DNA of 64,000 nt from Catajapyx aquilonaris (lineage: Eukaryota), in the NCBI GenBank assembly GCA_000934665.2, contig JYFJ02000982.1:1-64000 (forward strand), written 5' to 3'. The notes beneath the pieces were generated by a model. That model searched no databases. It worked only from the letters and a program-made list of their open reading frames with translations, and had not been told where the DNA came from. Within the stretch, counting starts at the first letter, position 1. Every line of letters begins with the position of its first letter. A program made the translations under genes and the position numbers. This document shows positions 6,177-59,689 of this stretch, piece by piece.

Positions 6177-7570
6177 ATTTAATTGGCAGGGGTTGACATT
6201 AGATGAGCACCAGTGCAAGACTTCATTTGAAATTGTTCAACTTGCCCATTCCCCATCCCATCTGAAACAAATCTCATCCAAGAGACAAAAACTGTACCAG
6301 AGAAATTAAATGTACAAACCTGCTTCAGATTTTCGCATCTTGCTACAAGGCGAAACTATACCTCCAATGACATCCTCAGAAATGATAATAAACCACTTTT
6401 GAGAGAAGAAAGAATTATTTCACAAATCTAAATAGGGTACAGAGCCAAAATGCAATGGAAAAAAATATTTATTAAACACCATCATTTATAGCATAAATTA
6501 TTGTCTTTACAATTGGAGGATTTTGATAGAAAATTTTAATATTGGATGTACTGACAGGGAAGGTTCAAGATAAAAGAAATGAAGCATAACTCCCCACAAG
6601 CTGCAGTTTCAGAATCCGATCTCCAAGTGTTACTGGAAAACTAAATGCATAAATGACTAATCAACATCACAGCTTTTTTTTTTTTTGTTAAAAGCCTATT
6701 GTCCTCACAAAATAATGTAGGCCTAACCTGATAATATAAAAAATACCACCTTCCTAGCCTGTCTCCTTTACAATGTTGAAATGTCCCCAACAAAAATAGA
6801 CTACTACAAAAACGTGATCTACAACTTAACAAATCTACTCGTTACCTGCACATCTTCATGTAAATTACTGGCAGGATCCATATTTTTACATTAACATTGT
6901 GATCATATCAGCAGATATCTGACTTGAGACACTTTAATGGCTATAATACAAAATTCTGTAGAGAATGTAGACTATAATGTGATTCGAAACAGAATTTTTC
7001 CAAATCTATTGTTCACGTAGATATCAACAGTTACTTGTAAAGTGACACTCGGCGAGAGTTAAGAACATGTTTTAACCCTTGTTAACAAATCCTTGCATTC
7101 TTTCTTATACATTTTCCCCCTGAGTGAGCATTGACCCATGTCTCTCTGGCCTCAATGCAATAAATGCCTGAGGACCCTGCGAGATTTCCAGCGTCTTGAG
7201 GAGGTCAGAGGGACAAAATATGACAGATGGGTAAATTTCTTTTACACGAAGCCCTGAAATGTAGCACAGCCAGAGTGACAACAATCCCCTTCAGAAGTAA
7301 GGGACTGAATTTTAATTCTCCCTCATGGGCTCACCTGTTTTCACATGTGTCAATTGCAGCAGGGAAAAGGGGAAAAATTGACCAGATCAACAGAAAGTAG
7401 GCATGGACTACATTGCACACTCATCTACTCAATTTTGACCAAAACATTATTGATGGCTTTGCATTTCAGGTATTCATAAAAGCTTCTTTTTGAATCGTAT
7501 GTTACAAAACACTGTGAATGGAATGAGGTTACAATACCAGTCCTTCCAACTCCTGCTACTCCTTTATCTC

Positions 7571-12329: not shown

Positions 12330-15300
12330 TTATGTTAAGTTCACATGAAGGTGTGGAAACAGTTGAGTTAGCAAGCTAGGATCTCTGACCTGGGACTTGT
12401 GGAGGTCAATTCGCACAAGTTCTGGGCAGCCTGCTACCAGGCAGTTGAGATCTACAACACTCAAGCTGCCGCATCCTCTAAGAGAGACATGCTTCAGTCT
12501 GGGACAATTGGTACCCAAATCTGACAGGTCATCATCATCTGCCAGGCACAAACTGTATGACAAATCAAGGCTTTCCAACTTTTCAACTACTTGGTGACGC
12601 TCCCAAAATTCCTCAAAACCGGGCCCTGTGATGCAGTTAAGATGCCGCATAGTAAGGTGCTTCAGATTTAACAAGGAGCCAACGCCATTCAGTAGGCCTT
12701 GGTCAGTCATCTTCTCAGCAGCAATGAGGTGCAGCTCATTCAGCTGTTGGCAATTTGATAAGCGTACAAATGATTCTTCCCAATACAAGTATCCCACTGC
12801 CAATTTGTGAAGCTGCTTGCCAACACTGTCAATTATTGACCCAAGCTCAATGTCAGAACAATCTCGGAAGATGCACACCTCCACCAGGTTGCCCCACTTC
12901 CTCTCTAGAGATGTATCTGGTTGAAGTGGTGGAACGTAGCCTATATATCCACCGCATCTAAGATACGTGTATGAATGGCCCAGGATCAACCTCTTCAGGT
13001 GAGAGAGCTGAGCCAGACGGTCCAAATGGTGCCTACCATCCTCTGGAATAATGCAAATGGGTATAGCTTATTGACACCTTTCTTTCGGTACAATATCTAC
13101 ACCAACTATTAGGTGCAAGAAGTGACCCTGAAAGGTCCTGCAGTAAAGATATAAAGTTAAGGTTTTATGTTTCATTTCAAAATAATATTGCCATTCAAAC
13201 ATGAAAAATAACACCAGGATGAAAAAGTTCCGGGAATGTACTTTAATCACCCGGCTACCTTGAGAAGTAGAGACGCGCTTTCCTACTATGTACTATCCAG
13301 TAGGAATACAAACTTCCAATCCCAACCATGTCATTTAATGAATGCCAAAAAATGTGGGAAGCCCTGTCTTAAAGGGAATCTGCATTTGATTCACTAGCTG
13401 ATCTCTGAAAGGTAACCCTAGGACATGAAGTCAGAGTCAGGAAAAATTCAAAACCCAGCTACATCACTGCACTGTGGAGAACCACATTCATATTGGATGG
13501 TGCTTAAGTATTTTCAATGTTGCAGCATAATATTATGGGCTGTTGTTTTTTGTGACGCTAGTAAATGAAGTTAAGGTCCAAATATTTTATTCTTACCCTT
13601 CATGTTGGCTAGACAGATCTCCTGAAGGTTGGTCAATTTCTGGGACAGGCGTATCAGTACGATATCCTCCATATCACGTATGTGTTGCATGTAGAGGCAT
13701 TCCAGGTTGGGGGAAGTTCTCCAGACAGTGTACAAAATTCTACGTGCATCACCTCCATTCCATCTCACCAACTCCAGCTTCTTCAGTTGGCTCATTCCCT
13801 GCAGTATTCTGACAGCAGCTGTCGCACTAGGCATCCTTGTGCCATCTAGTGAAATCTCCTTCTAGACTCTCGAGTCTAATGCACATACACTCCATTCCTT
13901 GCAAACGAGAGCCACGTTCTTGAGGTCCCTCTTTGAGAGATATGCAAATATCTTGACAACCACTTCAGGTAATAGGTCGGAGACTGTTGTTTTCTTTCCC
14001 AGAAATTGATGCCGTGTGATTAGACAACATTGTGCTTGCATCATGTGATTGTAACACTGCATTTTGAAGGGTTGCCACATCCTGCAACAGCACAATGGTT
14101 CATTAAATGCCAGTTTTAGATAACAATGTACAATAAGCATCTAGTGACGAGTAACTACTAGTCATATGCCAATGGTGTAATAGGTAAGTGATGACTGATG
14201 ACTGAAGTCCGGATTTTTAGGCAAATGCCTATTTACGAGTAGTTCCTTAACAGTTGGGATGGTTTTGTGAAGAGATCCATTTCATAAGTGCAGGATCTGG
14301 AATATGTAGGTTTTATAAAATTGCCTAATTTCGTAGTTTTGGGAACTATTTTGCATATTCTGGCTTCTTGTGCCTTTTCATGCCTATTTGACCTGTTTTG
14401 GTGTAGTTTTGAAGTAGTTTCGGGACCTTTTCGGCCTATTTCGGACCTATTCTTTCAGAGGAGTCGGAGACATGTTGGTTTTTTTTTTGCAGAATATTTT
14501 TTGTGCTCCTGAAAGGACCAATATCATTCATAAGTAATACGAATCATGTTCCTGTTACACATATGAGCAGGAAGGCAGTTCCAATTGGAGGAAGGGATTA
14601 ACTCGACACCAGACATATGGAAAGCTGCATGAAATCCGCGAGCTTGTGAGGGATTAAGGCTTGGCTGCAGTTTCCCATGGTGCCTCATGAAGTTGTTCAT
14701 AGAAGGTTCTTATATGTAGAGGAAATTCCATTCTACTTTGCGCCTGTTACTTGTTGGTTGGTTGGTTGGTTGGTTGGTTGGTAGGAAGGGTTACCCAGCT
14801 TGTATGGCTCTGTGTGAGTCGAGCCTTGGCAGCCGGGGGTAGGAGAGGAAGGTGTGGGATTGCAAGGTAGGGGTGGGTGAGAAGGGTGGGGGAGAGGAGG
14901 GCTGGACCTGGCTGTACTGCAATGCCGGGTCCAACCCAAGGACGGGGGTGGGATATTCTCCCAAGCACCCCGTCCAACCAAGAAATGCGAGTCGGGTCCG
15001 AGGACCGCTCGAGGAAGAGAGTACCGTCGCTGGCGAACCAGCCGGGACCTCAATTAGCGTATGTGCTGTAGAGATGCCATTTCCTCTCTACAAAACTATA
15101 CTCACAGACAGGAGACATACTTTCGTAGATTCACTAATGAATATCTAGAAAAATATTTTGCTGACATATCTGTGCAAGTGGTCCAGTCCAGAGCAAGTGA
15201 TACATTCTTGAACTTTTGTGCCTTTTGCCCAAATTAAGTTTTGTGATTTTCTGACAGTTGATCGTGGTTAAGATGCGTTTAGGGCCCATGCGATGAACAG

Positions 15301-15592
15301 GCCAAAGATATCCTTTTAGCAGTGCATACCGTACCTTCTTGTTGCTTATTGGTGCGGACCCGGCCTTATCTACTCCGTCTGATGCTGATGAGCCTGCCAT
15401 CTTCTTCTTCTTTGCAGCCTTGCCCGACATCCCTTTATGCCCACCAGCAGCCTTCTTCTTCCTCTTGGGCATTGCTGCTGGAGAGCATGTGGAACAGTCA
15501 CCAGCCGAACACCCGTCGAACCCACGGTCAAACCCAAGGTAAACATGGGCATGTTTTCCAGGCAGTCCATACTTCTCCGAAAGATCCCTCAT
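12330..15592 (-). pseudogene. F-box/LRR copy 2, probable pseudogene
   Basis: Exons 15592-15335, ~13999-13597, 13042-12330. The exon 2 acceptor reads TTTCTG rather than TTTCAG, and an in-frame TAG at 13864-13862 replaces the conserved Trp (LDSRV* versus LDSRLW). Confidence 0.8.
14752..14782. repeat. (GTTG)n microsatellite in intron 1 of F-box copy 2
   Basis: ttgttggttggttggttggttggttggttgg, next to a GC-rich block (to ~15050) that is absent from the paralogs. Confidence 0.8.
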
Positions 15593-15775
15593 TGCAATAA
15601 GTGAAAAACCATTAGAAACTAGGCCTTGCAACAGGAAACATGGAGTGTTTCATCTAAGTTTCCGTATCCGCCGTTGGGTGGCACACATGCTGCATGTGCT
15701 GCCATCTGTGCACGTTTCCTACACTTATTTCCAATCCTGAGATGTCCATGTCTCATTTTGTTTAAAAATTAATAT

Positions 15776-16098
15776 AATAATAATAATTCATACCCCGTTA
15801 TCAGCCTTTTTCGGCTCTTTACGGGGGAAGTTTCTTTTTGCCTGGAACTCTTTGCTTTTCATCTTTACTGTGTTCTTTGGGATAGGATAGGGACGGAAGG
15901 AAACGGCTGTGGCCTATTTAATAGGCCACAGCCGCTTCCTTCCGTCCCTATCCGAAGCAACTCCGGAATTTTCCTGGAAAGACCGTGGGAAACCACAGAA
16001 AACCACGGTCAGAGTTGCCGGCCCCGGGATTCGAACCCAGGACCTCCCGATTAGCAGTCGGACACCATATCCCCTACTCCAAACTGCTTCGGTCGTTC
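15776..16098 (-). mobile_element. tRNA-derived SINE (family A)
   Basis: Reverse strand begins GACCGAAGCAG.. with ctGCTaa and B box GGTTCGAATCC; (TTA)n tail; flanked by 12-bp direct repeat AAAAATTAATAT (15764-15775 / 16099-16110); homologous to 50608-50842. Confidence 0.85.
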
Positions 16099-17486
16099 AA
16101 AAATTAATATGGAATGCACTGATGAATGGACAGGGAAAATGACTAACATTTCGTTTTAAAAAGGATTGTCCTGGCAAATGTAACCTGATAAGAAAAAAAA
16201 ATTACCACATTCCTATAAGCTCATCTCTCTTTCACTATGCAGCACCTACCCGGACAAAAATACTGCCAAATGTACTGCTACAAAAAAAAATTAATGTACA
16301 ACTGAACAAATCCTCTGCTTCCTGCATAAAAATTTCATATTAATTACTGGCAAAAGCATATATTTTATATTGCGAACATGGCGACACTTTCACGACCATA
16401 ATACAAAATTTCTAGGAGAATATTTATAGACTAACATGACATTCTCAACAATTTGCAAATCAAGTATTCACACATATACAAACAGATACTAACATTGTGA
16501 ATTTGCTACTTTGCCAGAGCAAACAACATTAATTGACACTTGCTAACAAATCCTTGCATTCACTCTTGACACCTCTTTCCCTGGAATGAGCGTGGCACAA
16601 CACTCTGGCCTCAAATGTATTGTATAGTAAATGCCTGAGGATCCTGTGACCACTGTTGATACTGCGTGTCTGAGGTGGTTATAGGGGCAAAGCACGATAG
16701 AGGCGTTTAAATATTTCAAAGTCATATATAAGTCCTTTCATATTGATATTTCAAACATTGTTGACATCATGATATAACTTATTGCTTAATGAGTACTGGC
16801 AGTTATTGCAGTAATGTTTCCAATTAATACACAAACCAAAATAATGCACCTCCACGTAGTCTCTTCAATTTCCCAATTAATATTGAACAAAAAAATGTGC
16901 AGAAGTGACAAATCTACACCATAGCTGCAGTTCAGAGGTATCTCCAAGCACCTCTATTGCACAGCAGGACGTATCTTACACCCTCTCTCGGAAAGTACTT
17001 CCTACAAAATAAAAGTTACAAAATCAAACTGTAACAAATCAGTTTAAGTACTGTACTTCCATGGATATCACACATTTACTTGTAGCGGGAACATTTTACA
17101 AGACCTGAGATGCACCAAAATTAGAGCGGCCATGAAATGACCTTGAGGTGCAACGGATTGAATTTTAATTATCATCCCTTATATTGGTTCAGATTTTTTC
17201 AAATATTTTTACCGCACAGAATAATTACGCTAGGGAAATACTGACTTGATCATCAGAAAGTAAACATGAAAACCATGCACATTCTGAACCCCCATTTTGC
17301 CCAAAACATAACCGATGGCCCTGTATTTTACGGCTTCTAATAAAATTTATTAGAAGCCGTAAAATACAGGGCCATCGGTTATTTAATAAGCTTCTTGGGA
17401 ACAGTACGTTATAAGATACTGCAAATGTACTGGTTTTTGAGGTTTGCAATACCAGTCCTTGCAGCTCATGCTAACTCCTTTCTCTT

Positions 17487-19091
17487 TTAATATGTGAAGT
17501 TCACATGAAGGTCTGGCCTTCGTTGAGTTAGCAAGCTAGGAACTCTTGTCTGGGACTTGTCGAGGTCCATTCGCACAAGTTCTGGGCAGCCTGCTACCAG
17601 GTTCTGGATGCCTACAACACTGATGCGGCTGCAACCTCCAAGAGACACACACTTCAGTCTGGGACAATGGAAAGCAATCACTAACAAGTCATCATCTGTC
17701 AGGCAACAACTGAATGAGAGATCAAGGCTTTCCAGATTTGCAACTACTTGGCGACGAATAAAAAATCCCTTAAAACCTGACCCTGTGATGGAGGTGAGAT
17801 GCCGCATAGTAAGGTGCTTCAGATTTAACAAGGAGCCAATGCCATTCAGTAGGTCTTGGTCATACATGTTCTTAGCATTAGTGAGGTGCAGCTCATTCAG
17901 CTGTTGGCAATTCGATAGGCGTACAAATGATTCTTCCCAATACAAGTTCCCAACTGCCAGTTTGCGAAGCTGCTTGCCAACGCTGTCAATTATTGACCCA
18001 AGCTCAATGTCAGAACACTCTCGGAAGATGCACACCTCCACCAGGTTGCCCCACTTCCTCTCTAGAGATGTATCTGGTGGAAGTATTGGATGAGAGCCAG
18101 CATATTGTGGGCGTTCCCGATACCTGTCAAACTGGCCTAGGATCAACCTCTTCAGGTGAGAGAGCTGAGCAAGACGGTCCAAATGGTGCCGTCCCTCCTC
18201 TGAAATAATGCAATTAGTAGCTTATAGACACCTCCTTTTGGGTACAATATCTGCATCAACTACAGTATATCTAGATCCAAATGGTAACCATGGTCTTGCA
18301 GTACAAATAAATTTGAGGAAAATTATGTTTCATTGCATTTGTATTTTTGTGTGGTTAGTAAATGAAGTTAAGGTGAAGATGTGTCTTCTTACCTCTCATG
18401 CCGACAAGAGAGATCTCCTGAAGTTTGCTCAATTTTTGCGGCAAATGTATCAGGGTGATGGCCTCCAAATTATAGATCCGATTCATATGGAGGCATTCTA
18501 GGTTGGGGGCAGTTTTCCAAACAGCGGACAAAATTTTGTGCGCATAATAACCACCCCAATCCACCAACTCCAGCTTCTTCAGTTGGGTCATTCCGTTCAG
18601 TATCTTGACAGCAGCTGCCACACTTGGCATCCTCGTGCCATCTAGGGAAATCTCCCTCCACAACCTGGAGTCCAACGCAAACACACTCCATTCCTTGCAA
18701 ACAAGAGCCACGTTCTTGAGATCCCTCTTTGAGAGATACGCAAATATCTTGACAACCACCTCTGGTAATAGGTTGGAGAATGTTGTTTTCTTTCCCTGAA
18801 ATTGAAGTCATGTTATTAGACAATGTTCTTGCACTCTCGCAGTGCATACCGTACCTTTACTTGGCTATGTACGGAACCAGCCTTACGCTCATGTCCGTCT
18901 GATGCAGATGAGCCTGTCGTCTTCTTATTTGGAGGCCCATCTTGGTCCGACATACGAGCCTTCCTCTTCTTCTTGTAGTGGACCTTCGCTTGGCATGTGG
19001 GGCAGTCAGCATGCGGACTGATGTCGTACTGATGGTTGGCATGATGTTTCTCAGGCACTGCCGGTGCATACTTCTCCAAAATGTCCCTCAT
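17487..19091 (-). CDS. F-box/LRR protein, copy 3 (~450 aa)
   Basis: Exons 19091-18855, 18795-18393, 18199-17487; canonical splice sites, open frame, F-box plus LRRs. Confidence 0.85.
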
Positions 19092-19880
19092 TCTATGACC
19101 TACAATACGGGACACAAGCTGTCAGCCTAGAGTACAGTACAGGACAAATACAGATGCGTACAGAGCTCACTTACATCGCAAATGAACCAGGCCTTACACT
19201 TGCAACCATAAAGAGAGACACGAAAGAAGGAAAGAGTCTTAAGAGTGTCACAAATTTTCATCTACTTTCATGATCATCCGTTGGGGGGCAGCAGGCGGCA
19301 CTGTCTGGAAAATATAATACGTCTATGGGAAAAAATGACTAGTGTGGCCGCACTGTGGCCAATGGTGACAACTAGAAATTCAAAAAGGTTTAAGGCGCCA
19401 GTTTGTACTAAAAATTTAATTAATGTTTATGTGCATTGCACAGAGCATACTTATAGTGGAGAGGTTTGATGGATTCTCTCAGTGTTAGCGTAGGTTTTCT
19501 CGGGGCTCTCCCGTTTCCTCCAACATGCAAAAAAGCACCATAGCATATACGATTCATGATTATTATAAGTGACAGGCATTTACATACGTATAAATACATA
19601 AATTACATAATTTTAAAAGCAGCACAATCAGACTTGCAATGTATTAAACGAAACCATACTTTAAAGATTTAATTATGACCCACTGGATTTTTTTATATTT
19701 ATTTATTTTACAAATATTTCATAACATAAATGAATACACTGCTCTACCAGAAAAGACTTCGCCATCAGAAAATAGGCATCGAGGATTACATGTCGTAATA
19801 ATGAACTCAACACATTATTGACATGTTTGTATATCAAAACCTCTGTGTAATTAACAACAGTTTGTGAATTGCCCATTTAT

Positions 19881-19987
19881 GGCCGGTTTCACCAAGCTCG
19901 GTTCTTTCAGAAAATCCCTATTCTATTTGCAGGGATTTTCTGAAAGAACCGGGGTTTTTATGAAAACCGGGCTTGGTGAAACCGGCC
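19881..19987. mobile_element. ~107-bp MITE-like element
   Basis: Terminal inverted repeats GGCCGGTTTCACCAAGC / GCTTGGTGAAACCGGCC plus internal inverted repeat ggttctttcagaaaatccct / agggattttctgaaagaacc. Confidence 0.7.
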
Positions 19988-20032
19988 ATTAAAAATACTG
20001 CGAATGAAATGATTTCCGAGGTTCATACAACA

Positions 20033-22604
20033 TCAATCCCGGCAGCACCTGCAACTCCTTACCATCCGAAGCGAGGTTCTAAAAAGCCGTGGAGTCAGCG
20101 TAGAAAGCACCTGATAATCTATCTGGAAATTACTGAGGACTAATTGCGTTAGATCTATGCAGGCTTTTACCAAGGGCTTCAGGCCTTGGGCAGTGACACA
20201 GCTGCATCCTTCAAGAGACACGTACTTCAGCTTGGGACAATTGGCAGCTACAAGAGACAAGACGTGGTCTGTTACACAGCAACTGAATGACAATTCGAGG
20301 CTTTCCAGATTTTCAACTACTTGGCGACGACCCCAAAATTGCTCGAAACCGGATGTTGTGATGGTGGTGAGCTCCCGCATAGTAAGGTGCTTCAGATGTA
20401 ACAGCGTGCCAACACCATTCAGCAAGCCTTGGTCATCCATTTTCTTAGCATTAGTGAGGTGCAGCTCATTCAGATTTTGGCATTTTGACATGTGCACAAA
20501 TGAGGCTTCACATTTCAAGAATCCAACTGCCAGTTTCTGAAGCTGTCCCCTAGTGCTGTAAATCACTGACGAAAGCTCAACGTCAGAAGGCGTTCGGAAG
20601 ATGCACACCTCCTTCAGACTGCCCCACTTGATATCCACAGATTTATCTGGAACAAGTGGTGGAATCGAGCCTATGTATCCTGAGCGTTCAAGGTAGGTGT
20701 GAGACTTGCCCAGGATGAACCTCCTCAGGTGAGAAAGCCGGGCCAGGCGGTCCAAATGGTGCCTGCCGTCCTCTGGAATGAAGCAAGAAGTACAGCGTAC
20801 CGACACCGTCCTACGAGTACAATATCTGACGTCAACTATAACTGAACACAGCAACTCTTTTTTTTTTTGGTGCTAGTGCATGAAAAATGATATTGCAGGA
20901 CAGCTCAGAAATAATTGTTAATAATTTTATGCAAAGGACTCATAAAGTGTTTCGCGCAGTTTTCTTGTTTTCCGCAACTGTCCAGATATTTATTCTCACC
21001 TCTCATGTTGACAAGACATATCTCCTGAAGGTTGCTCAATCTTTGGGGCAGGCGTATCAGTGAGACATCCTCCAAATTGTAGATGTGTTGCATGTAGAGG
21101 GATTCCAGGTCCGGTGCAGCCCTCCAAACGGTGCACAAAATTCTGTGAGCATCGCTTCCACTCCACCTGACCAACTCCAGTTTCTTCAGCTGGGTCATTC
21201 CCTGCAGTATCCTGACGGCAGCTGCCGCACTAGCCATCTTTGTGCCGTCTAGCGAAATCTCCCTCCACAACCTGGAGTCCAACGCAAACACTTTCCATGC
21301 CTTGCAAACCAGAGCTGCCCTCTTGAGATCCGTCTTTGAGAGATACACAAATATCTTGACAACCACCTCCGTCATAAGGTCAGAGAATGTTGTTTTGCTT
21401 CCCTGAAATTGTTGCCATATGATTAGACATCATGCACACTGAGAGAAAATTATTACAGGTGGTAATGATTTTCATAGGTGACCAATAGATGATTATCAAG
21501 GCTTTGTACCAGTATATTTACCAAATATGGTACAATGCCTCTCACGGCCTCCTTGGGGGGCCACGACTCCCAGGTTGGGAACCCCTGGCTTAGGGCCAAC
21601 AAATGGACACATTAGTCAGACAAGTATTTTGGATCACCCTGTATACAGGAAGCATTAGCTCTTGAAAGTACCCACTTAACGCTGAGCTTCATTTCATGCT
21701 GATTCACATTAGCACGCCACTTTCAAAATTACCTTTGAAAATTATTCAATTGGGAAAATACTTGGCAAGGGCTCATCACGCTTCTTTCGCGCCCCACACG
21801 CATCTGCGCCCTGTGCGGTAGCACTGGTCGCACACCCCTAGCGCCGGCCCTGAATTCAAGTCTAGTACACGTGTGTGCAGGGGGTGCCTCGAGAAGCAAT
21901 TTGATATAGGACACCCACACTTGGAAAACCAATCCCAACTGCGCTACAGGACCTCCAAGGCCCATTATTGCAACAGCCCCAAATATTGTTGTGTTTCCCA
22001 TTGTGCTCATTGTTTAGCTGCTATAAACAATTTCATTCAACATTGTAGGAGACATTGAGTACGTACTTACTGTCGATTTATTGTTACTCTTTTGTTTCGC
22101 TGCGGCAGCGGCTGAGTTTAGCAATGTACTCCAAGAGTACCGTACGTACTTATTGTTGTTTTATTCCTACTCTTTTGTTTCGCTGCGGCAGCGGCTGAGC
22201 TTAGCAATGTACTCTTTGATATTTTTGGAGCGTGAATTTTTCAGTGATAATGTGTCGACCGAACTTACATTCCCAACCGCTGCCATTTCATCCTGGCATG
22301 GTTCGGTAGGTGTCGTAACCGCAGTCCTCTTTGTGCTGCTTTGTCTGGACCTGGCCTTATTACGCTCGTCTCCTCCTGATGCTGCAGCAGTCTTCATCTT
22401 TGTAGGCGAGCCACCTTGGCCAGCTGCCAGCCTCCTCTTCCTCTTCTGCCCCGACACTGCCCTGCGTCCTCCTTCCTTCCTCCTGAACACCACACGGCTC
22501 TTGTTGCGCAGAGGACAATCGTCTCCCCACCACCAGTCGTTCTCAAGGCCTGGGCATTGGTCCACCCCATCAGCCGGTGCGTACTTCTCCAAAATGTCCC
22601 TCAT
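20033..22604 (-). CDS. F-box/LRR protein, copy 4 (~492 aa)
   Basis: Exons 22604-22269, 21402-21000, 20772-20033; canonical splice sites, open frame, divergent C-terminus. Confidence 0.85.
21437..21644. mobile_element. Mosaic of DNA-transposon terminal fragments in intron 1 of F-box copy 4
   Basis: CACTGAGAGAAAAT (CACTA-like start, 21437), GGTTGGGAACCCCTG (hAT-like TIR end, 21573-21587), GGATCACCCTGTA (Tc1/mariner-like end, ~21631-21643). Motif resemblance only; no partner termini found. Confidence 0.4.
22058..22214. repeat. Local tandem duplication (~55-80 bp)
   Basis: tactcttttgtttcgctgcggcagcggctgag(t/c)ttagcaatgtactc occurs twice, each copy preceded by gtacgtactta. Confidence 0.85.
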
Positions 22605-26446: not shown

Positions 26447-28627
26447 ATGGCGTTGAGGATGAAGGTAATTTGTGCAATACTGTGTATAGCAGCCAGTTAC
26501 TCCTGGACAACAGGCAGTGACAAGTTGATAATTCAATCAATTGAAAAAATACTCAGAGAAGTTGGAAGTGACTGCGATTTGGTGATGAATCACGACGTAG
26601 ATGGCCTTCTTCCAAAAGTGATCCTGGATTTTTTGGCCAACATATCAAGACCAGTTGTCATCACTCTCTCAGCATCACTCAGCAACTGGAAATGCACAAG
26701 TTATGTCCGTTCACATGTTAAAATTATTGAAGGAAGTGTCAGGCCTAATTGCGCCACGTACCTGGTGGCCACATGCTCTCAAAATTACGCTCAGATCATG
26801 TCGCAACTGTTGTACGAAGATAACGTGATCAGAAAGACCAAAGATCGGTTCGTGTTTTGGATCAGGGATAGTTCAGACTCCAGCTTCTTACTGGAACATC
26901 CAGCAAACCGGATCAAGTTTAAGATCGCTTTAACCACGCGTTTAAACCAAGTTCAGGCCAGTTCTGCCTGCTTCTTCTGCGATCGCGGAAAACCAGCAGT
27001 TCAGACCCTTCAGGACGGATTGTTTCAGGACATGGCTTCAGACCTGCACGGAATATTCTTGAACAGCGTATTCGAAGAAAGTATGAGCTACGAGCAATGC
27101 GGTCCTTTCTCCTACTTTTACGAAATCTGCTTTCTCGGTCAAGCTCTTAAATTCAGGTGGGAAGTGACCGCCATGAACTTTGCGGATGTCGTCAAAAATG
27201 TGTCAGCCACAGTCGACTTTGTGGACAAGTTTGACAGCGGAGAAATTGCATTTTCGCCTAGAATACCACATATTCCAATAGCATTCCTGGTAAGTTCATG
27301 CAAAGTGTTATAAGGTATAGTCAGGGAGCATATACTACTACATAAGAGGCGCAAACATTCGATTTCCGCGTCTCTCTGTTTGGGGCGTTGCCAAGGCTGG
27401 CGGCCATCTTGAAGTGTGGGGAACGCCAACGAGGTATAAATAGGGTACAGTCAAAAATAGGTGCCGCCATCTTTGATTCGCGCGTGTTCTGCCGTGTAGT
27501 TGCCATAGCCGCCACAACCATCAAAGATGGCGGACCCTATTTTTGCCTGTACCCTATTTATACCTCGTTGGAGTTCCCCACACTTCAAGATAGCCGCCAG
27601 CCTTGAGCCTTGGAAATATATGTAGTATATGTTCCCTGGTAGGTATAGTATGGTATTAAAATATATTGTGACATAACAGGTGTTTGACTACACTTCGGCG
27701 TACGACAACCAGCGAATGACGTTCCTGGTACGTCAACCTCGTGTCACCAACACGACGTTTGTCGCAATCACACCTTACCAGCCTATCCCCTGGTTCGTGT
27801 TCTTCGCCAGCATGTGTTTGTCCAGCCTCTTCATGTCCATTTTGTCAAGTGTGGACGGGACACATCGCTCTGTAACATCATGGCTCCAGTACCTAGCACG
27901 AATATCTATCGAGCAGTGTCCTCGTCCGCCAGAAACGTCGTCAACCCGGATATTCGTCTCAATCTGGTTTTTCTTCTGCATCATAGTCGGTACAGGCTAC
28001 AAGAGCAAGTTGTATAACATAATAGCATTTCCGGATAAAGAAAATGTGCCTCAAAATTTTCTTGAACTGTTCAACTCATCGTTCACAATCCAACTGAGCG
28101 AACTGGTTTACCACTTGGTTGTCTCATACAGTGATTCGGAATTCCTCCTAAATTACAAGGACGTGTTGGCGAAAACGACATCTGTTAAAAACGAGCAGGA
28201 ATGCATGAAAGGCATTATAGATATCGACACAGTCTGTATGAATTCTGAGTATGTGCTGGACACATACGCTCGAAACTTGGATCCGTACGGTACCGGTAAG
28301 ACTGTCATGTCCTCAGACTCATTCATGACCGTGCACAGGTCCATGGTGTTGCCGAAGGACGCGGTGTACACTGACAACTTTGACTTTTGGATCCAAGTTT
28401 GTGTCAGCATTGGGTTGAAATCCAGACATGACAGTCTGATGATGCATTTGCATGGTCTGGAAGCGGCTAAAGCGAGAAGAGACAACGGATTTCAAGAGAA
28501 GAATGGGCCGTGTCCATTCTCATTGGCTCGTCTAATAGGGTCATTCGCAATTATTTTGGCTGGATACGCCCTGGCATTTGTACAATTTTTGCGTGAAATT
28601 TGCAACATTATTACAATACATTGCTAA
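26447..28627 (+). CDS. Divergent ionotropic receptor (IR, iGluR-related chemoreceptor), ~596 aa
   Basis: Exons 26447-27289 and 27680-28627 (phase 0). Signal peptide; FDYTSAY..TFLVRQP; TM1 PYQPIPW..; SSTRIFVSIWFFFCIIVGTGYKSKL..FP; final TM PFSLARLIGSFAIILAGYALAFVQFLRE; AATAAA overlaps the stop. Confidence 0.88.
27322..27638. mobile_element. Fold-back MITE (family M1) in the IR intron
   Basis: Ends CAGGGAGCATATACTAC / GTAGTATATGTTCCCTG; ~85-bp internal inverted arms; direct repeat AGGTATAGT at 27313-27321 and 27641-27649; second copy at 59007. Confidence 0.85.
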
Positions 28628-33476: not shown

Positions 33477-33534
33477 TATAAAACGGTGCAAATCCCCCAG
33501 ACTCTTCCTCAGTCGAATTGAGACTCATCCACAG
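33477..33534 (+). promoter_or_regulatory. TATA/Inr and non-coding first exon of GST unit 4
   Basis: TATAAAA at 33477, TCAGT at 33509, donor CAG|GTAGC at ~33534, acceptor ctgacag ending 33628 just before ATG 33639. Confidence 0.55.
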
Positions 33535-35187: not shown

Positions 35188-36036
35188 ATGCCAGTGGACT
35201 TTTACTTCGCACCACCCAGTGCCCCTTGTCGCGCGGTCATGCTGACCGCAAAGGCCGTCGGGGTCGAGCTTAACAAGAAGATGGTCAATCTCATGAATGG
35301 AGAGCACATGAAGCCCGAGTTCCTCCAGGTACGCCATACATCACTATTGCACCTAAACCTTAGACACAAGCATTTATCTAATGATCTTGTCACAACCCAG
35401 ATCAACCCTCAACACTGTATCCCAACCATTGTAGACGACAAATTCACTCTTTGGGAAAGGTGAGCTTGTTCGATTTACATGCTGTGGTCATTCCCTGTAT
35501 GCTCTTGACCATTTCAGCCGTGCAATCCAGGTGTATCTGGCCACCAAATACGGAGGTGACGACTCTTTGTACCCAAAAGAGGCCATGAAACGCGCCTTGG
35601 TCGAGCAGCGTCTCAACTTCGATTTGGGAACACTGTTCCAGCGCTTCATGGAAGCATACGTGAGTTAGCAATATATTACAACAATGATGATGTGATAGTT
35701 ACGCTGACCATTTCCGGACAGTACCCGGTGATGTTCATGGGAGTCGAGAAGGTGGACCCGCACAATATGTCCAAAATAAAGGAGGCCATGGAGCTCCTAG
35801 ACGGGTTTCTGTCGCTGTCCAAGTGGGCCGCAGGGGACAGCATAACCGTCGCTGACCACAGTCTGGTGGCCACCATCAGCCAGTTAGAGGCTACCGGGTA
35901 CGACCTGTCCCCATTCAAGAACGTGACCAAGTGGTACAAGCAGTGCCAGAACGACATGCCCGGATTCAAGGAGGCCATGCAAGGAGCCACCATGTTCAAA
36001 GGAATGTTTGAGAAGATGGTGACCGGGAAAGTGTAG
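35188..36036 (+). CDS. GST Delta-class, unit 5
   Basis: [17 protein letters not shown]..; four exons; ends EKMVTGKV*. Confidence 0.93.
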
Positions 36037-36268
36037 CCATTCTTCTGATAACAGTGACACCGAATTTGCAGTAAATAAACATCAAATTCTACCTGCTCTT
36101 GTTCATTCCTTTTTTTTAAAAAAAAATCTCTAGCATAGCCCTGAGGGAAAAAACATAATGACAATAAATCCATTGTTGTTCCATGGGCGTTCCATGGCGA
36201 CATGTGCGTCAACACAGCCTGTGAACAATAGGTCATCCAAATTGGAGGAATCGTAAAGAACAGTCAAA

Positions 36269-38502
36269 ATGCCCGTGGACTTTTACTTCGCACCTGCCAG
36301 TGCCCCTTGTCGGGCGGTCATGCTGACCGCAAAGGCCCTCGGGGTCGAGCTCAACAAGAAGATGGTCAACCTCACGGCCGGAGAGCACATGAAGCCCGAG
36401 TTCCTTAAGGTACATCACTATATTATGTCGGGTTTACAGCCCATTCGCCGAATCAATTAGGAAACAGTACCCGCGGCTTTCTGACCCTTTGTATCGTGGT
36501 TTTGTGTGGGTTTTAAGTGGGGGAAGTGACTAGGGACACCGGAATTAATTCCTCAAGCTAGATCAGAATGCAGACAGGATCATTGTCATGATGATTGCTG
36601 CAGTTCCCAAAGGGCTATTCCATCCTATATAATCACCTCAAAATCCGTCCCGAATTGAATCCACGAAGACCCGGTAAAAAAATGTATTTTGTTGCCAACC
36701 ACCAGAAATTTCAATTTCGGTAAGTTGGCGTCGTTGGAGTGATTCGGCCTGAGATATATAGCAATCAGTCACCTTCGGTCTGGTTCAGCTTCTGGAATTC
36801 ATACCGAGATTCCTAGTCACTTCTCCCACTTTAAACCCACAGAAAACCACGATGCAAAGGGTTGTCAGCAAGCCTCATGTACTCTTTCCTAATAATTGAT
36901 TCGGCGTCTGGCCTGTAAACCCGACTTCAGCCAATCTAAAGATCTTGTCACAATCCAGATGAACCCTCAACACTGCATCCCAACCATTGTAGACGACAAA
37001 TTCACTCTTTGGGAAAGGTGAGTTTGTTCGGTTTACATATGCTGTGGTCACTCCTTGTATTATCTTGACCATTCCAGTCGTGCAATACAGGTGTATCTGG
37101 CCACCAAATACGGAAGTGACGACACCTTGTACCCAAACGACGCCATGAAACGCGCCTTGGTCCAGCAGCGTCTCAACTTCGATTTGGGAACACTGTTCCA
37201 TAGCTTCAGAGCAGCATACGTGAGTTGGGAATTACAATAATGATGATGTGATAGTTACGCTGACTATTTCCGGACAGTTAGCAATTGCAACTATGATGAT
37301 GTGATTGTTACGCTGACCATTTCCGGACAGCACCCGATGATGTTCATGGGAATCGAGAAGGTGGACCCGCTGAAGCTGTCCAAAATAAAGGAGGTCATGT
37401 ACCTCCTGGACGGGTTTCTGTCCCAGTCCAAGTGGGCCGCAGGGGACAACATAACCGTCGCTGACCACAGTCTGGTGGCCAGCATCAGCCAGTTAGAGGC
37501 CACCGGGTACGACCTGTCCCCATTCAAGAACGTGACCCAGTGGTACAAGCAGTGCCTGAACGACATGCCAGGATTCAAGGAGGCCATGCAAGGAGCCACC
37601 ATATTCAAAAGACTGTTTGAGAAGATGGTGGCCAGGACACCCAAAATACTTAAAATGCCCGTGGACTTTTACTTCGCACCACCCAGTGCCCCTTGTCGCG
37701 CGGTCATGCTGACCGCAAAGGCCCTCGGTGTCGAGCTCAACAAGAAGATGGTCAACCTCATGGCCGGAGAGCACATGAAGCCCGAGTTCCTTAAGGTACG
37801 CCATTCGTCACTATTGCACCTAAACCTTAGACACAAGCATTTATCATTCTAATGATCCTGTCATAATCCAGATCAACCCTCAACACTGCATCCCAACCAT
37901 TGTAGACGACAAATTCACTCTTTGGGAAAGGTGAGCTTGTTCTGTTACATGCTGTGGTCACTCCTTGTATTATCTTGACCATTCCAGCCGTGCAATCCAG
38001 GTGTATCTGGCCACCAAATACGGAGGTAACGACACTTTGTATCCAAACGACGCCATGAAACGCGCCTTGGTCCAACAGCGTCTCAACTTCGATTTGGGAA
38101 CACTGTACCAGTGCTTCATGGAGGCATACGTGAGTTAGAAATTACAACAATGATGATGTGATAGTTGCGTTGACCATTTCCGGACAGTACCCGCCGATGT
38201 TCATGGGAGTCGAAAAGGTGGACCCTCAGAAGCTGTCCAAAATAACGGAGGCCATGGACCTCCTGGACGGGTTTCTGTCCCTGTCCAAGTGGGCCGCAGG
38301 GGACAACATAACCGTCGCTGACCACAGTCTGGTGGCCACCATCAGCCAGTTAATAGCCGCCGGGTACGACCTGTCCCCATTCAATAACGTGACCAAGTGG
38401 TTCAAGCAGTGCCATAACGACATGCCCGGATTCAAGGAGGTCATGCAAGGAGCCGCCATGTTCAAAGGAATGGCTGATAAGATGTTGGCCGGGAAATTCT
38501 AG
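36269..38502 (+). CDS. Tandem double-GST fusion gene (units 6+7), ~440 aa
   Basis: Exons 36269-36409, 36959-37017, 37078-37219, 37331-37795, 37872-37930, 37988-38129, 38188-38502 (1323 nt). The fourth exon reads ..[20 protein letters not shown].. with no stop; the second ATG at 37655 is in frame. Confidence 0.8.
36427..36925. mobile_element. ~500-bp MITE with long imperfect TIRs in intron 1 of GST unit 6
   Basis: GTCGGGTTTACAGCCCATTCGCCGAATCAATTAGGAAA.. / ..TTTCCTAATAATTGATTCGGCGTCTGGCCTGTAAACCCGAC; inverted similarity extends ~125 bp; absent from the homologous introns of units 5 and 7. Confidence 0.85.
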
Positions 38503-38790
38503 TAATTCTTCTGATAACAGTGACACCGAATTTGCAATTAATAAACATCAAATTATACCTCCTGTTGTGCATTCCTTTTTTAAAAAAAAAAGTCTCTAAG
38601 GAAAAAACAATGAAAAATAGAGAACGTTTCAATAAAAGCGGACCTGGTCTGGACCAGGTCCATTATTTTTGTTACAGATTCGACTGTTGCTATTTCCGAT
38701 ACGGTATTGTATTTCTTCCCAGAACCTGCCATGGAAATGTCTTTGGATCAACAATGCCTATCTTCAGAACATAGTTATTTAGGGAAAGAC

Positions 38791-41700
38791 ATGGCGAGGA
38801 TTTTGGTTGGAAGTCTCGCTCTCTTCCTTCTCTTGTGTTTGTTAGAAGTCCATGTTACATCAGGAAGTTATAGGAAATCGTACCTGAAGAAGTATCACAT
38901 CGTTTCCAGTCGCGTGAAGGTAAGAGTGGTCGAGTGATACTTGGCTACACCTGACCAGTGGGAACAAAAGGTTCAAACCTGTGTCTGTACCTGCCCTTTC
39001 CAGATTCCCAGGATAAGACGGGTGTCCTTAGAAGACAGTTCTGACTCCATATTCGATGATCACCCTGACTACTGCATTTATCTCCGGATAAAGAACATCC
39101 CTCCTGGACTCGACATTTGCCTCCGTATCCGTCAAAGAAGCGACATGAACTTGACCTTCATGTCTACCGACGGCAGTAATCTCGTCGAGATACCGGACAA
39201 CATCCGAGGAGCCATGGTGTACGGACATGCCAACCAGGACAGACTCAACTCATTTGTGTCCGGGTACATTCACAACGGCCAGTTCTTCGGGGAGATCACC
39301 TTTAGAGGCCGGATCTTCGCAGTGGAAGAGCTCTGGTCGCACGACGAGACCATAAGGAACAGCGGTGGTAGTCCTTTCCCGACGTTGTCCAACAGGAAGA
39401 GCGTACTGTATGAGCTCGTGGACTTCATGACTGACTCAGGACAGCTAACGCTTCGAAGACAGAAGCTCGGAGACGTCATGACTGACCCAGGACAGGTAAG
39501 GCTTCGAAGACAGAAGCGCAGTGTGTCCAAGAAGGCTGAACGGTACAGGCCTTACGGAAGGTCCTACGACTTGGAGGACCAGTCCCACCTATTCAAAACG
39601 AACAGGATCTTCCACCCTCTCAGGTAAGACTCGACATTTCCGAGTAACCTAGAGATGATTTTTTTTACAAGCCACCCGAGTGCGCACCCACATTCGCGCA
39701 GCTCTGTTGTCCAGACAACAACGTTGCCAGAATTACTCGTATCTGCCGATTCTTTTCAGGCAGTACGAGGTGGTGTGCAGACTGGCTATACTAGCGGACC
39801 ACTTCTTCTTCAAGAATATGGCTAACGAGGATAGCCTTCTGGCGTTTCTGAAGCTGGTGAGCTTCGCCGAGAGAGTGCGGTACATTTTCAGCCACATCAA
39901 CTACGACCCCGGAAACCCAAATCCTGGCACCAGATCGGACGAGATTCGCTACAGGATAAAAGACGTGAGTTGCTCATTATAGGTTCAGTACTTCAACCAT
40001 CAGGTTCCCTAAGCTGAAGCATATTGCGAAACCCTTTCCCACAGTTTGTCGTGTTCGAGAAAGAGGACGTGGAGGGATATCCCATTACCAGCAGCACCCT
40101 CCACCTAGACATAGCCGAACGATACGTGTCCACCATGAGCAAAGGCTTAAACCTACAGGAATTCTGCATAGGAATAGTGATTTCGGGACACAACTTCACT
40201 GGGGATCCAGGCAAGTACACATTACAAGTCTTGACTCACGTCTTATAAATCCGTCGCACCACGAACCATATGAGAAAAGGGAGGCCATCACCTTTGAAAT
40301 TTTATCTACAATTATGCCACTGGTTTATTGTGCCTTTATACCGATGGTGACTCGTTTGGTTCGGACTTGACCAATTGATGACTTTTTCTGAACTGTGCAG
40401 CGACCGTGAACTTCTGTTTCAGGCAAGGCTTTTGAACCCGATCCCGATCGAGAGCTCGGAGGTCTGTGCGAGTCAAGCATTTCGATCGACGGAGAAACAT
40501 GGAGCAGGAACATCCTGGCAGTGTCGGCCGCAGCTTCTGGAGGGACGAGTGCACTTCCCAGCAGGAAGGCCAGCACTCTCATCGCCTACTACATGGCGAG
40601 GGCCATGGGGGCCAAAGACGACGACTCATCCTGCGATCCTCCAGGTATATATGCCAAGTGCACATAACACATCTGCGGTATGTACATAATAATGTTGGCC
40701 CGCGGTTTCCTTTCCAGATTCGGAGAAAAACGGTTACTACTTGATGCACAGCCACGACCAGGACGGCTCAAAGAAGAACCACTGGCTGCTGTCACAGTGC
40801 AGCAAAATGCAGATCAAGGTCATCTTGGACAAGCAGGCAAACTGCTTCACAATCGGCGACACCTCATATTGCGGGAACGGTACTTGCTTGTATCGTCTAC
40901 AGACAGAACGGATGTAATGCTATGTTCTTAACAGGCATAATCGAGAATGGCGAGGAGTGCGACTGCGGTACGGAGCACGTTACCTTTGGCTGCGAGGCGC
41001 ACGACGGATGCTGCCACCTGCCCATGTCGAAGGACGCGTGCAAAGTCGTGTAAGTTGCGTGACGTCATGCAAATGCGACTATTTTCTTCCTGCAACATTT
41101 AGTTGGACCGTGTGTCGTTTTGGATATTGCTGTTGTGATGCATACCCGGCATTTTACAGCACCGCGAAGCCATGCGAGAACGATGCGTGGCCCTGCGTCA
41201 TGTGCAACAAGACGGGCTGGCCCAAGTGCCAGTCCCACGAGAGGCCCTGCGATAAAGGCGAGGTCCCATGCTTACCAAGGTCCATCTACTGTCTCAACCA
41301 GACGAACCAGCCGGAGCCCTGCTGGTGCCTGTCCGACGAGACTCCCTGCTGCAACGAGACCAAACTGACCATGTGCAAGTCGAGGCCCTGCCGGTTCAAC
41401 GAGGTCCCCTGCAAGTCCCGGAAGCCGGGGCTTCCGTGCAAGATGGACGAATACCCTTGCATCCCTTGTGGCAAGCCAAAGCAGCCTCCCTGCAACCAGA
41501 CGTTGTGCAACGATAACTGCAATAGCTCCACTGATTGCAGGCTGTGCAGACCAGAGGAAGAGCCGTGCCGGTTGTTGAGGGGGTGTGGTGAATATGAGAT
41601 GCCTTGCTCGTACAACTGCACAGGAGTGGAGAACAGCGTTGAGTGCAGGGAATGCGAGGTTGGGGAAGAACCGTGCTTCCCCAAGCGTAGGAATTGCGCA

Positions 41701-44254
41701 TTCTATGAGGTCCCCTGCATCGAGTGCATCGTTTTTGACGGCATCAGGGAATGCCCGTTTATATCGGAGGCGATGCGGTGCGAGGAGGGAAAACCACAAC
41801 AAAACCAAAAACACTGCTTTCGGCAGTGCGAGGAGGGTGAAGAACCCTGCCTAGAGATTCAAAACTGCTTCAAGTTGACGAACGATAGCAGGCCGGGCAC
41901 CAAGCTGTATGATAGCTGCGCGGAGTGCGGGACCCATGGGCGGCCAGCTTGCACCGAGTGCAAACAGCCGTGCAAAGCCGACCAGCGAAATTGCTTGGAG
42001 ACGGTCTCCTGTCCCTCCTTCGTCACACGCTTCCGTGATTTTGTACCCCTCTGGTGCTTGGAGGTCGAGCCCTGCATCGGTTCGAACAGGCCCTGCCACC
42101 CCTGCGGCACCGAGTATTTCCCGGCCTGCGATAAGGTCCGGCTGCCGTGCAAGTTCTTCCAGCCCTCGTGCAATCTGTCGATCAAGTGCGTGCCAGGACA
42201 GGCGCCCTGCTGTCCACACCAAGGTAGGTAGGATAATTAACTTGCCACACACCCACGTCACATTAGACCTCGTGCTTGCAAAATTTCTTTCTGCAGCTAA
42301 GGATGAGCACTGCCTGCAGCAGAATTACAGGAGATGCAACAGAAGCGAGGCTACCTGCTTGTATGAGACGGAGTGCACAGTCGGACAGGAGCCTTGCAGA
42401 GAGTGCGGCGGTCCCTATCAGATGTCCTGCGAATACGGCCGTTGCAAGAGCGAATGCTTGTGCGGATCCCGATCGCCTTACAAAAGTTGCCGCGAGTACG
42501 AAAACGTCCAAGCATGCCTGACAGTGTGCGAGATGCACACCGAGTTGTGTAACGCCACGTGCCGTGAGCGAGACCCCTTCATGGCCGAGATATGTCAGGA
42601 GGACTGCCAAGACAACATGGACCTGTGCAACTACACGTGCCAACACCAGCTAGATCTCTGCGACAAGGTGTGCAAAGACTGCCTCGAGAAGTGCGAGTTC
42701 TGCAAAAATAATTTCTGCGACGCCGAAACACTTCCGTGCATCAGGGCCAATTGCACGAAAGGACAGGTGCCGTGCACCCCTTGCGGAGGACCCGAGGAGT
42801 GCCGCAAGGTGATGAACCCGTGCAGAGGCGAGGGTTCGTGCGTCGACAAGGCCCGGCCATGCGATGAGGGAGACGTCCCATGCAGGCTGGATTCGTGCGG
42901 ACCTGCCGCCAACACCTGCAGGCAGTGCGAGACAAATGAGACTCCGTGCTTCTTCCCAACCCGTACCTGCACGCAGGACGAGATTCAGTGCGTCCCTCGG
43001 CACTTGCCTCTCACCTGCGACGACCGCAAGTGCGATGACGACGAGACTCCCTGCAAGGCTCCGGTTCCTTGCGAGTACGGCGAGATGCCCTGCCAGCCCT
43101 GCGTCGACGACAATTGCACCGATCTCGAGCGTCCCTGCAAGTTGGGCCAGCTTCCGTGCGTCAAAGGGCGTCCCTGTTTGGCCAAGGAGTTGCCGTGCAC
43201 CCCGTGCGGAGAGTATGGCCAGCCCAAGTGCTACGACGTGACGAAACCATGCGGTCTCTTCGAGGTGCCTTGCAGGCTTCCAAAGGTGTGCGGGGTGGAC
43301 GAAACACCGTGCGAGCCGCCCAACTGCACCGATCTGCCTTGCCTCAGATGGCGGTGGTGCGAGCTGTGGGAAAGGCAGTGCGTGCAGTGCGGCCGGGAAG
43401 GACAGCCCCCGTGCGACCTGTTGTCCTGCAAGGACACGTGCAAGACGGACAGTTGCAGGCAGACGTGTGAGATGTGCCACACCTGCGACGCGGACGAGGT
43501 ACCTTGCCGCCCGAGGTTGCCTTGTGACTCCAGCGAGTGCAGGCGTCCGGACCCTGATCCTGCCTGCAAGTTTTGCGAGAGGATAGTGTGGAGGTGCCGT
43601 AGGGGGCAGAAGCCGTGCTCGGAGGACCCAGACTGCATAGAGGATGGCAATCCGGCGTGCAAAGGAGCCGAGCCGTGCAATCAGGCAAGCAAACCCTGCG
43701 CTGTTCCCAGGGCGTGCAAAGAAGGCGAGACATCCTGCGTGCTGTGTGGCATCTCAGGTCGGCCCCCGTGCACCAACTGCAGCGAGAGGATCTGCGACAT
43801 AGGCGAGATGCCGTGCAGCAGGCCGCAGATGTGCACGTACGACAAGCCCTGCGTCATGTGCGAGAAGCCAGGCTACGAGAACGTGCCGTGCTCCAGCGTC
43901 GTGCCGCCCAACCGCCCGTGCATGGACAGCGAGCTGCCGTGCGTGGAGCAGATGATATGCGACCACTTCGAAGAGAGGCCATGCGTCCCATGTGGCTGGA
44001 TAGGGACGCCCGAGTGCGAATCGATACAGGTTCCGTATCGGCCGTGCGGTATGCTCGAGATTCCTTGCCGAGCCAGGTGCACTCCGAGCGAGCTGGCTAA
44101 CCAGACGATTCTGCCTTGGAACTACGTGGAGATGATGAGGCCCAAGAGGAGGACCCAGTACGAGAAAGCGGCGGCTCATCGCGCGGAGGGGCTGCGGATT
44201 GGATTGGTTTTGATTGGGATGTTTGTCGCGTTTCGTCGACTGCTTGGGCAATGA
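38791..44254 (+). CDS. ADAM17/ADAM10-like pseudo-metalloprotease with long Cys-rich repeat extension (~1,546 aa)
   Basis: Nine phase-consistent exons: 38791-38919, 39004-39623, 39760-39964, 40045-40210, 40423-40644, 40718-40879, 40935-41049, 41160-42223, 42297-44254. Signal peptide, prodomain ending RQKR, CRLAILADHFFF, Met-turn GYYLM, SQCSK, CGNGIIENGEECDCG, hydrophobic C-terminus. Confidence 0.82.
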
Positions 44255-59006: not shown

Positions 59007-59362
59007 GGAGCATATACTACATAAGAGGCGCAAACATTCGATTTCCGCGTCTTTCTGTTTAGGGCGTCGCCAAGGCTGGCGGCCATCCTGAAGTGTGTGG
59101 AACGCCAACGAGGTATAAATAGGGTACAGGCAAAAATAGGGTCCCCCATCTTTGATTCGCGCGTGTTATTGCCGTGTAGTTGCCATGGCCGCCAAACCCA
59201 TCAAAGATGGCGGACCCTATTTTTGCCTGTACCCTATTTATACCTCGTTAGCGTTCCCCACACTTCAAGATGGCCGCCAGCCTTGGCAACGGTCCCAAAC
59301 AGAGAGACGCGAACATCAAAGGCGCCGACAGAAGTTTGCGCCTCTTATGTAGTATGTGCTCC
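59007..59362. mobile_element. Fold-back MITE (family M1), second copy
   Basis: GGAGCATATACTACATAAGAGGCGCAAAC / GTTTGCGCCTCTTATGTAGTATGTGCTCC; nearly the whole element is palindromic; homologous to 27322-27638. Confidence 0.88.
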
Positions 59363-59689
59363 TTGCTGTAGAACAAAAAGTTTTTAAATATTTTTTTCTC
59401 CGTCTAATCATAAGTCACAATGTTCTTGTTGAATCAATTTGTTTAACTTGTATGTGTTAATTAGAATACTGTATATGTTACAGTGTGCAATGAATTTTGC
59501 AACACTGCAATATTCGCAAAACAGCACCTTATCATCCATAGGCAGGTATATATAAAAAATAGCTCAAGGTTGTCCTTGAAACGCCGCGCGCATGTTACAG
59601 CCTGCATGGCAGTCCATGCTCGACTCTTGCACTGAAAGGAAGTGTGCAGTCTATACCAACGACACTTATTGTACCAGAAGCTTCTAGCA

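Follow-up and report, generated by a model that had tools for sequence, protein, structure and literature searches.

Background

According to passages of PMC4138524, GSTs are mostly dimers, Leishmania TDR1 (PDB 4AGS) is a trimer of two-GST-domain chains and not a canonical dimer, and TDR1 is listed among the cysteine-type GSTs. The two domains of Trypanosoma cruzi Tc52 are of similar size, as stated in an excerpt of PMC5342303. In PMC13745539 the term two-domain GST denotes ordinary GSTs. No description of a genome-encoded tandem Delta GST was found in the literature searched, the scope of which excluded most subscription journals and supplements.

The DNA analysed, called here the window, is a stretch of 64,000 nucleotides from Catajapyx aquilonaris (assembly GCA_000934665.2, contig JYFJ02000982.1, positions 1 to 64,000 of the forward strand). 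Units 6 and 7 of its Delta GST cluster are fused in one reading frame and, as in TDR1 and Tc52, one chain contains two complete GST domains. In the assembly the fusion is real, and very probably it is so in the animal too. To judge from the models described below, it most likely encodes a tandem GST of the Delta class, the halves of which would be unable to pair with each other.

Organization of the fused reading frame

In the spliced gene model units 6 and 7 constitute a single forward-strand frame of seven exons, 1323 nt long, which encodes 440 amino acids plus a stop (about 49.6 kDa), and all introns have GT..AG borders. The upstream region of unit 6 (promoter and 5' UTR, 36150..36268; 15 substitutions in 116 aligned nt relative to the upstream region of unit 5) is the only one remaining for the fused gene, and carries a TAA in the codon frame at 36254-36256. 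Exon 1 (36269..36409) encodes the N-terminal thioredoxin-fold part of unit 6 with the SAPCR motif, and is followed by exon 2 (36959..37017) and exon 3 (37078..37219). Exon 4 (37331..37795, 465 nt, an open frame of 155 codons) is the fused one: it includes the C-terminal helices of unit 6, the linker and the first exon of unit 7, and reads stop-free through RTPKILK to the unit 7 ATG at 37655. The linker (37634..37654, 21 nt) is assigned by UTR alignment to the 5' UTR of unit 7's ancestor; its seven residues stand in for the three that naturally close the C-terminus, GKV or GKF in units 5 and 7, so that the chain is longer by four. Exons 5 (37872..37930), 6 (37988..38129) and 7 (38188..38502) correspond to exons 2, 3 and 4 of unit 7, the last one giving a GST_C match and ending with the sole stop, a TAG. 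The 3' UTR (38503..38600, forward strand; 8 substitutions in 78 nt relative to that of unit 5) has a poly(A) signal at 38540, 3' of unit 7, the first 3' UTR signal found downstream of the unit 6 promoter region; an AATAAA at 37384 lies within exon 4, and is also present in unit 5.

The ancestral layout is provided by unit 5 (35188..36036, forward strand, 218 aa), the unfused sister gene and a possible dimer partner of the fused chain. Units 5 and 6 are separated by a spacer of 232 nt, which has no counterpart between units 6 and 7. The first-pass annotation had claimed that unit 6 lost its stop, 3' UTR and a spacer of about 230 bp, that it runs through a 7-residue linker into the ATG of unit 7, and that unit 7 has no upstream region of its own; the missing spacer, the stop-free fused exon and the deletion of the ancestral unit 7 upstream region bear this out. 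The SAPCR motif is found in both halves, which, as had also been claimed, keep splice sites and open frames, and the frame for a two-domain protein of about 50 kDa is present in the genome. Unit 6 is the only unit without its own stop, and hence called the only fusion, among the 21 cluster units checked, which are 19 gene models located at 24648-81025 of contig C395 and two unit ends read by translation, the GST-like pieces beyond 82 kb on this contig being left out of the count.

The best solved-structure matches of both halves are Delta GSTs, and Epsilon entries are about 20 orders of magnitude weaker. Exon 4 matches the Nilaparvata lugens Delta GST 3WYW through both of its parts (E 1e-36), and the Pfam GST_C domain in residues 15-77. 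GST_C is above cut-off in both halves; the 47-residue first exons taken alone have no Pfam match, and align to the N-termini of Delta GSTs. In the tree units 5-7 are placed inside the cluster, among arthropod Delta-type GSTs. The whole product, with its 440 aa and 49.6 kDa, departs from the single-domain format of about 25 kDa of Delta GSTs.

Residues S11, H40, N49, P50, H52, I54, P55, E66, S67, R68, T156, A158 and D159 are kept in both halves, and we take them to be the glutathione site and the N-capping motif. S11 is presumably the catalytic serine; N49, P50, H52, I54 and P55 form the motif NPxHxIP, and E66, S67 and R68 the motif ESR, both assumed to belong to the glutathione site. R109 is changed in both halves and kept in unit 5 and in all 16 other cluster models; S or A is found at this position in other insect Delta GSTs.

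Neighbourhood of the cluster

The GST cluster is preceded at 6400-21450 by a second tandem family of four related units (blocks 70-85% identical), and is interrupted at 38700-44254 by a multi-exon gene with open frames of 437 and 791 aa. By eye this gene presumably resembles a metalloprotease of the ADAM type whose cysteine-rich tail is very long; three of its frames were tested and none has a Pfam match. An element of about 280 nt, found at 27322-27605 and again, together with an inverted copy, at 59007-59365 (93% and 81% identity), is probably another small transposon. Many GSTs at 57456-81025 of contig C395 have an altered SAPCR motif in which the arginine is lost (SPPCS, SPSCS, CPFSG, SPNCG, SPYCG, SPPSA), and in the gene at 67735 a Cys takes the place of the motif serine. 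The isolated GST last-exon fragment found between two whole genes at 66169-66318 of the same contig (L011) is probably a deletion remnant.

Origin of the linker

In unit 5 as in unit 6, an in-frame stop precedes the ATG by 15 nt. The first 12 nt of the linker match the unit 6 upstream region at 36230, in frame, at 10 of 12 positions, a likeness reached in 0.95% of shuffles and in 3 of 221 control stretches, the segment length having been picked after the fact. The same 12 nt match at 10 of 12 positions also at 35176, where the last 12 bases of the unit 5 UTR are found, and the last 9 nt of the linker match the end of this UTR at 7 of 9. On these alignments the linker is read as former 5' UTR, from which the blocking in-frame stop is gone by either of two routes. 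Two in-frame deletions, the second taking out 18 nt with the stop, fit the data; one deletion ending directly behind the stop, combined with a 9-nt duplication, fits as well. Loss of the spacer as an intron through cDNA was discarded, because the candidate sites give the wrong frame. UTR differences build up both before and after a fusion, and thus assign no date to it.

In exons 1-3 unit 6 resembles unit 7 more than unit 5, and in exon 4 the reverse holds (p 0.017). From this pattern unit 6 (36269-37654) looks like the product of an unequal crossover, the two halves of which possibly joined at a duplication in intron 3.

The course of events favoured here starts with a deletion in a young tandem triplet of Delta GST genes. 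As the sequence shows, it took out the unit 6 stop, 3' UTR and poly(A) signal together with the unit 7 promoter and in-frame 5' UTR stop, leaving both coding regions whole and in frame. A transcript starting at the unit 6 promoter would have to extend as far as the poly(A) signal of unit 7; if spliced at the downstream acceptor of intron 3, it would give the tandem GST of 440 aa and 49.6 kDa. Each half would retain an ordinary serine-type glutathione-conjugating site.

Splicing, selection and the state of the locus

The first-pass annotation recognized the fusion and missed two features of unit 6. The first is a 53-nt tandem duplication in intron 3 (37225..37330, forward strand), the copies of which differ in the alignment at 7 of 53 nt and provide two acceptors, one with an AG that ends at 37277, the other with one that ends at 37330. 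Use of the former, upstream acceptor leads to a TGA after 8 codons, and defines an intron of 58 nt, similar to that of unit 7 and belonging to the commonest size class in the cluster. The intron-side scores of the two acceptors are alike (-2.6 and -2.85); by the weight matrix, built from 54 cluster acceptors, both are poor, as are the sites of the sister units. The duplicated acceptor could truncate unit 6. The second feature is a high-copy, MITE-like inverted-repeat element located in intron 1 (36427..36925, no strand assigned) and made of three nested pairs of inverted arms, 82-91% complementary, over which the summed contig depth is about 3000-3900 versus about 30.

Sister units 5, 6 and 7 differ by dS 0.10-0.12. 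Branch dN/dS values, which have little statistical power, are 0.40 for unit 5 (9 synonymous and 13 non-synonymous changes; p 0.036), 0.75 for unit 6 (7 and 19; p 0.48) and 0.79 for unit 7 (6 and 17; p 0.61), the last two not different from 1; in the comparison with unit 4 the ratio is 0.21-0.28. By these counts selection on the fused halves appears to be relaxed or diversifying. No frameshift distinguishes units 6 and 7, versus about 7 expected under neutrality by a rough estimate, and this lack may predate the fusion. The estimate derives from non-coding alignments with 8 indels in 612 aligned bases, counted over 9 overlapping and non-independent pairs. The near-neutral ratios and the rival splice acceptor weaken the case for a maintained enzyme.

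The deletion might accordingly be real and yet recent or private, and the locus decaying: it would be little transcribed, or spliced mostly to the upstream acceptor with destruction of the message, unit 7 would be silenced, and the open frame would be a matter of luck. This is a serious possibility, though not one that we regard as probable. It agrees with dN/dS near 1 on both fused branches, with the similar scores of the acceptors, with the occurrence of both the element insertion and the duplicated acceptor in unit 6, and with the finding of the fused stretch in one sample only; substitutions in the linker may moreover stem from its UTR stage, and hence give no date for the fusion. Decay is less easily reconciled with 440 codons free of stops and frameshifts, and with a break that takes out exactly the in-frame UTR stop and keeps the frame. 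The 7 differences in 53 nt between the acceptor copies also suggest that unit 6 may long have stayed intact with the duplication, unless the copies come from different paralogues. The chances that the fused gene is expressed and maintained are about even.

As for transcription signals, the sequence TCATCC, followed by AGTCA at +28 to +32, is found at 36233-36266, and unit 5 has the same arrangement with a mismatch in the second motif; the two motifs are presumably comparable to an initiator and a downstream promoter element. In unit 4 one finds instead a TATA box at 33477 and, at 33509, a site resembling an initiator. A bacterial promoter scan, a type of scan not relevant to an arthropod, found no site.

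Pairing of the two halves

The way in which the double protein would assemble was explored on two stand-ins, the database models P0049 and P0063, which share both Delta domains (99% identity) and are distinct in the linker only. P0049 has 55 residues between the marker motifs, versus 54 in the window's fusion. Its AlphaFold2 fold (pLDDT 90.6, pTM 0.54) shows two good domains with no confident relative position, and in the model the linker extends the last helix straight into the next domain. P0063 has 77 residues between the motifs, 22 more than P0049, and folds with pTM 0.87 (AlphaFold2). The linker of the latter model is disordered at 216-245, and the fold is read as the canonical pairing of the domains. 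By analogy with these models, a single pair of predictions matched in their domains, the linker of the fusion is probably not long enough for one half to dimerize with the other in the usual GST manner.

The structure prediction proposed by the first-pass annotation was thus made on stand-ins; it returned two well-folded domains and, at the short linker, no confident placement of one relative to the other. The intramolecular pseudo-heterodimer, which had been the preferred proposal, is not supported, as shown by the pTM of the stand-in with the window's junction length. The fallback proposal of higher oligomers is the better reading, within what folds of stand-ins can tell. A single-chain pseudo-heterodimer might still form if the last helix of unit 6 unwinds to lengthen the link. 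Both halves have complete domains, and given a long linker AlphaFold2 readily arrives at such a pair; the stand-in that paired, however, needed about 30 disordered residues, and at the junction length of the fusion the linker continues the last helix into the next domain, so that this form of the protein is very improbable.

Pairing between chains, in the manner of Leishmania TDR1, is on the models likelier than pairing within the chain. Since GSTs are mostly dimers and the linker appears too short, each half should find its partner in another chain, fused or single. The partner would be either a second fused chain, in a closed dimer or a TDR1-like ring, or a single-domain sister such as the product of unit 5. 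That a real deletion gave rise to a tandem GST pairing in this way between chains, and predicted to work as a serine-type glutathione-conjugating enzyme, has in our estimate an even chance of being correct.

The join in the assembly

A collapsed assembly, named by the first-pass annotation among the circumstances that would undo the fusion, was looked for. The join lies within a stretch of unique 31-mers (37573-37690), and the longest repeated word in 37625-37660 is 11 nt (within 96 kb of sequence). A collapse needs a repeat at the join, and is therefore unlikely in unique sequence. A genome search made with 37330-37800 gave 28 matches, and the whole query was covered at one place only. The window contains no N.

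Three runs (X1-X3) were compared with the assembly. They derive from one sample, which may be the source of the assembly, and test the assembler, not the population. In each run the 8 contigs listed have no letter differing from the assembly. Both predicted unitig ends are matched by 6 of the 8 listed contigs in X2 and X3 and by 5 of 8 in X1, where one listed contig is 2 bases longer than predicted. Upstream of units 5 and 6 the depth is that of the single contig found there, and hence there is no third copy at 90% likeness. Among the contigs and loose ends listed no joint, differing letter or loose end is found at the join; the junction-spanning contig, a piece of 118 nt and too short for the listing, is not among the contigs listed, beyond which there are 342 further pieces and 68 further loose ends. 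A depth model of this contig agreed with one bin in X1 and X2 but gave too high a value for the adjacent bin in X1-X3, and was discarded. Among the data sets listed as containing the stretch none is of RNA. In run X5, the kind of which is unrecorded, one loose end corresponds to a neighbouring cluster gene at 30 of 30 nt; the run has no contig piece on units 5-7, and the blank was not counted as evidence.

An assembly error, in which two separate genes are joined by collapse, could be imagined where three paralogues share about 85-91% identity and the assembly is fragmented, with 20,583 contigs, the more so as the bridging contig is absent among those listed. It is very unlikely: the join is not in a repeat, nor is it an exact copy of either sister, and neither an N in the window nor a third spacer, joint, differing letter or listed loose end at the join in X1-X3 points to it. 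Just as unlikely is the continued production of unit 7 as a protein of its own (25 kDa), which would leave the fusion with little consequence. Such a protein could come from a cryptic promoter in unit 6 or from cleavage of the linker, which is basic and presumably exposed. In its favour, the unit 7 ATG has a start context resembling that of its sisters; against it stand the deletion of the ancestral upstream region and the lack of TATA- or initiator-like matches at 36765-37844 in a simple motif scan.

Double-length relatives and an independent case

Arthropod double-length GST entries are usually treated as annotation errors. According to PMC12220653, GSTs make up one of the largest clusters among chimeric mis-annotations. 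Of 263 longer candidates compared with the fused exon 13 gave a score; 9 of these span the junction, with at most 44% identity, and junction-spanning matches remain at most 45% identical when a search of 1.84 billion representatives is included. No close relative containing the junction was found in these searches, and the matches among 81 proteins of near length cover at most 66% of the fused exon. Ten double-like matches were looked up among the 1.84 billion representatives; nine are NCBI gene models, and one is P0146, which derives from three short JGI contigs.

The database doubles (Neodiprion, Hylaeus, Ceratosolen, Drosophila, Cochliomyia and others) have two Delta units per predicted chain and a junction similar in length to that of the fusion. 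Judged from the entries, most have the appearance of gene models that were merged. In Neodiprion the same gene supplies the second half of a double in two species and the first half in another two; such changes of pairing between congeners match what is described for chimeric mis-annotation. Drosophila guanche is represented by two entries, of 431 aa and of 211 aa. Unlike in these doubles, the join is found in the window inside a single genomic exon.

A metagenome scan returned two loci out of 117 pattern matches. Both (L020, 191-1510; L021, 77-1396) encode in a continuous intronless frame a double Delta-type GST of 439 aa, P0146, with two GST_N and two GST_C matches and a junction of 52 residues, versus 54 in the window's fusion. 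The two frames differ by 8 synonymous codons and 1 non-synonymous codon. The halves of the protein are identical at 163 of 220 positions, and the second unit lacks its Met. The contigs are mRNA-like because of the intronless frame, the AT-richer 3' flank and the AATAAA signals, and from this anatomy they are taken as transcripts. In the tree the halves of P0146 are each other's sisters, far from the window's cluster, which indicates an independent origin. L020 and L021 show that purifying selection can maintain a tandem Delta-type GST with a short linker; they do not show this for the window's locus, and are a stronger candidate than it for an established tandem GST.

A second fusion, hinted at by equal frames on contig C655, was rejected, since the DNA has a TAA stop and a spacer of 133 nt. 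The two Delta/Epsilon-like GST genes found there (C655, 72120-73990, corresponding to L015, 6120-7990) thus lie 133 nt apart, and the second carries at its C-terminus about 55 additional residues, rich in Ser and Thr.

Comparison with known systems

An unfused sister with the ancestral spacer adjoins the fusion, and the birth of a fused gene can thus be read base by base. If expressed, the gene would show how an obligate dimer adapts once its subunit is chained to a paralogue, and would be a young Delta-class counterpart to TDR1; if not, it is an ordinary accident of a cluster. Taken with the L020/L021 gene, it suggests that among the doubles set aside as mis-annotations some are real. More speculatively, and we rather doubt the statement as a whole, short-linker tandem Delta GSTs might be a real and undescribed architecture which has arisen at least twice, at the window's locus, seen soon after birth, and in the established L020/L021 gene. 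The linker would forbid self-pairing and lead to rings or closed multi-chain oligomers in which two different substrate sites are kept in a fixed 1:1 ratio, converging on Leishmania TDR1, and the deletion would have been favoured by selection because it rescued a promoterless downstream gene.

The fusion resembles the arthropod Delta GSTs, with 3WYW, Bombyx mori 3VK9 and Drosophila GSTD1 (3EIN) among the best solved-structure matches of each half, in the serine motif and in the residues of the glutathione site. These are single-domain chains of 208-254 residues as deposited, whereas two complete units per chain are found here. The organization of the chain is that of TDR1 and Tc52, from which the fusion is set apart by GST class and lineage and by its youth, the halves differing by dS of about 0.1. 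TDR1 is missing from the 51 sequence matches obtained, and compared with the Delta stand-in model it has 18% identity and an rmsd of 19.7 A over the whole chain; a serine is present in both halves of the fusion, in contrast to the cysteine-type TDR1. By analogy the fused protein may work like TDR1 and Tc52, and it is no member of their family.
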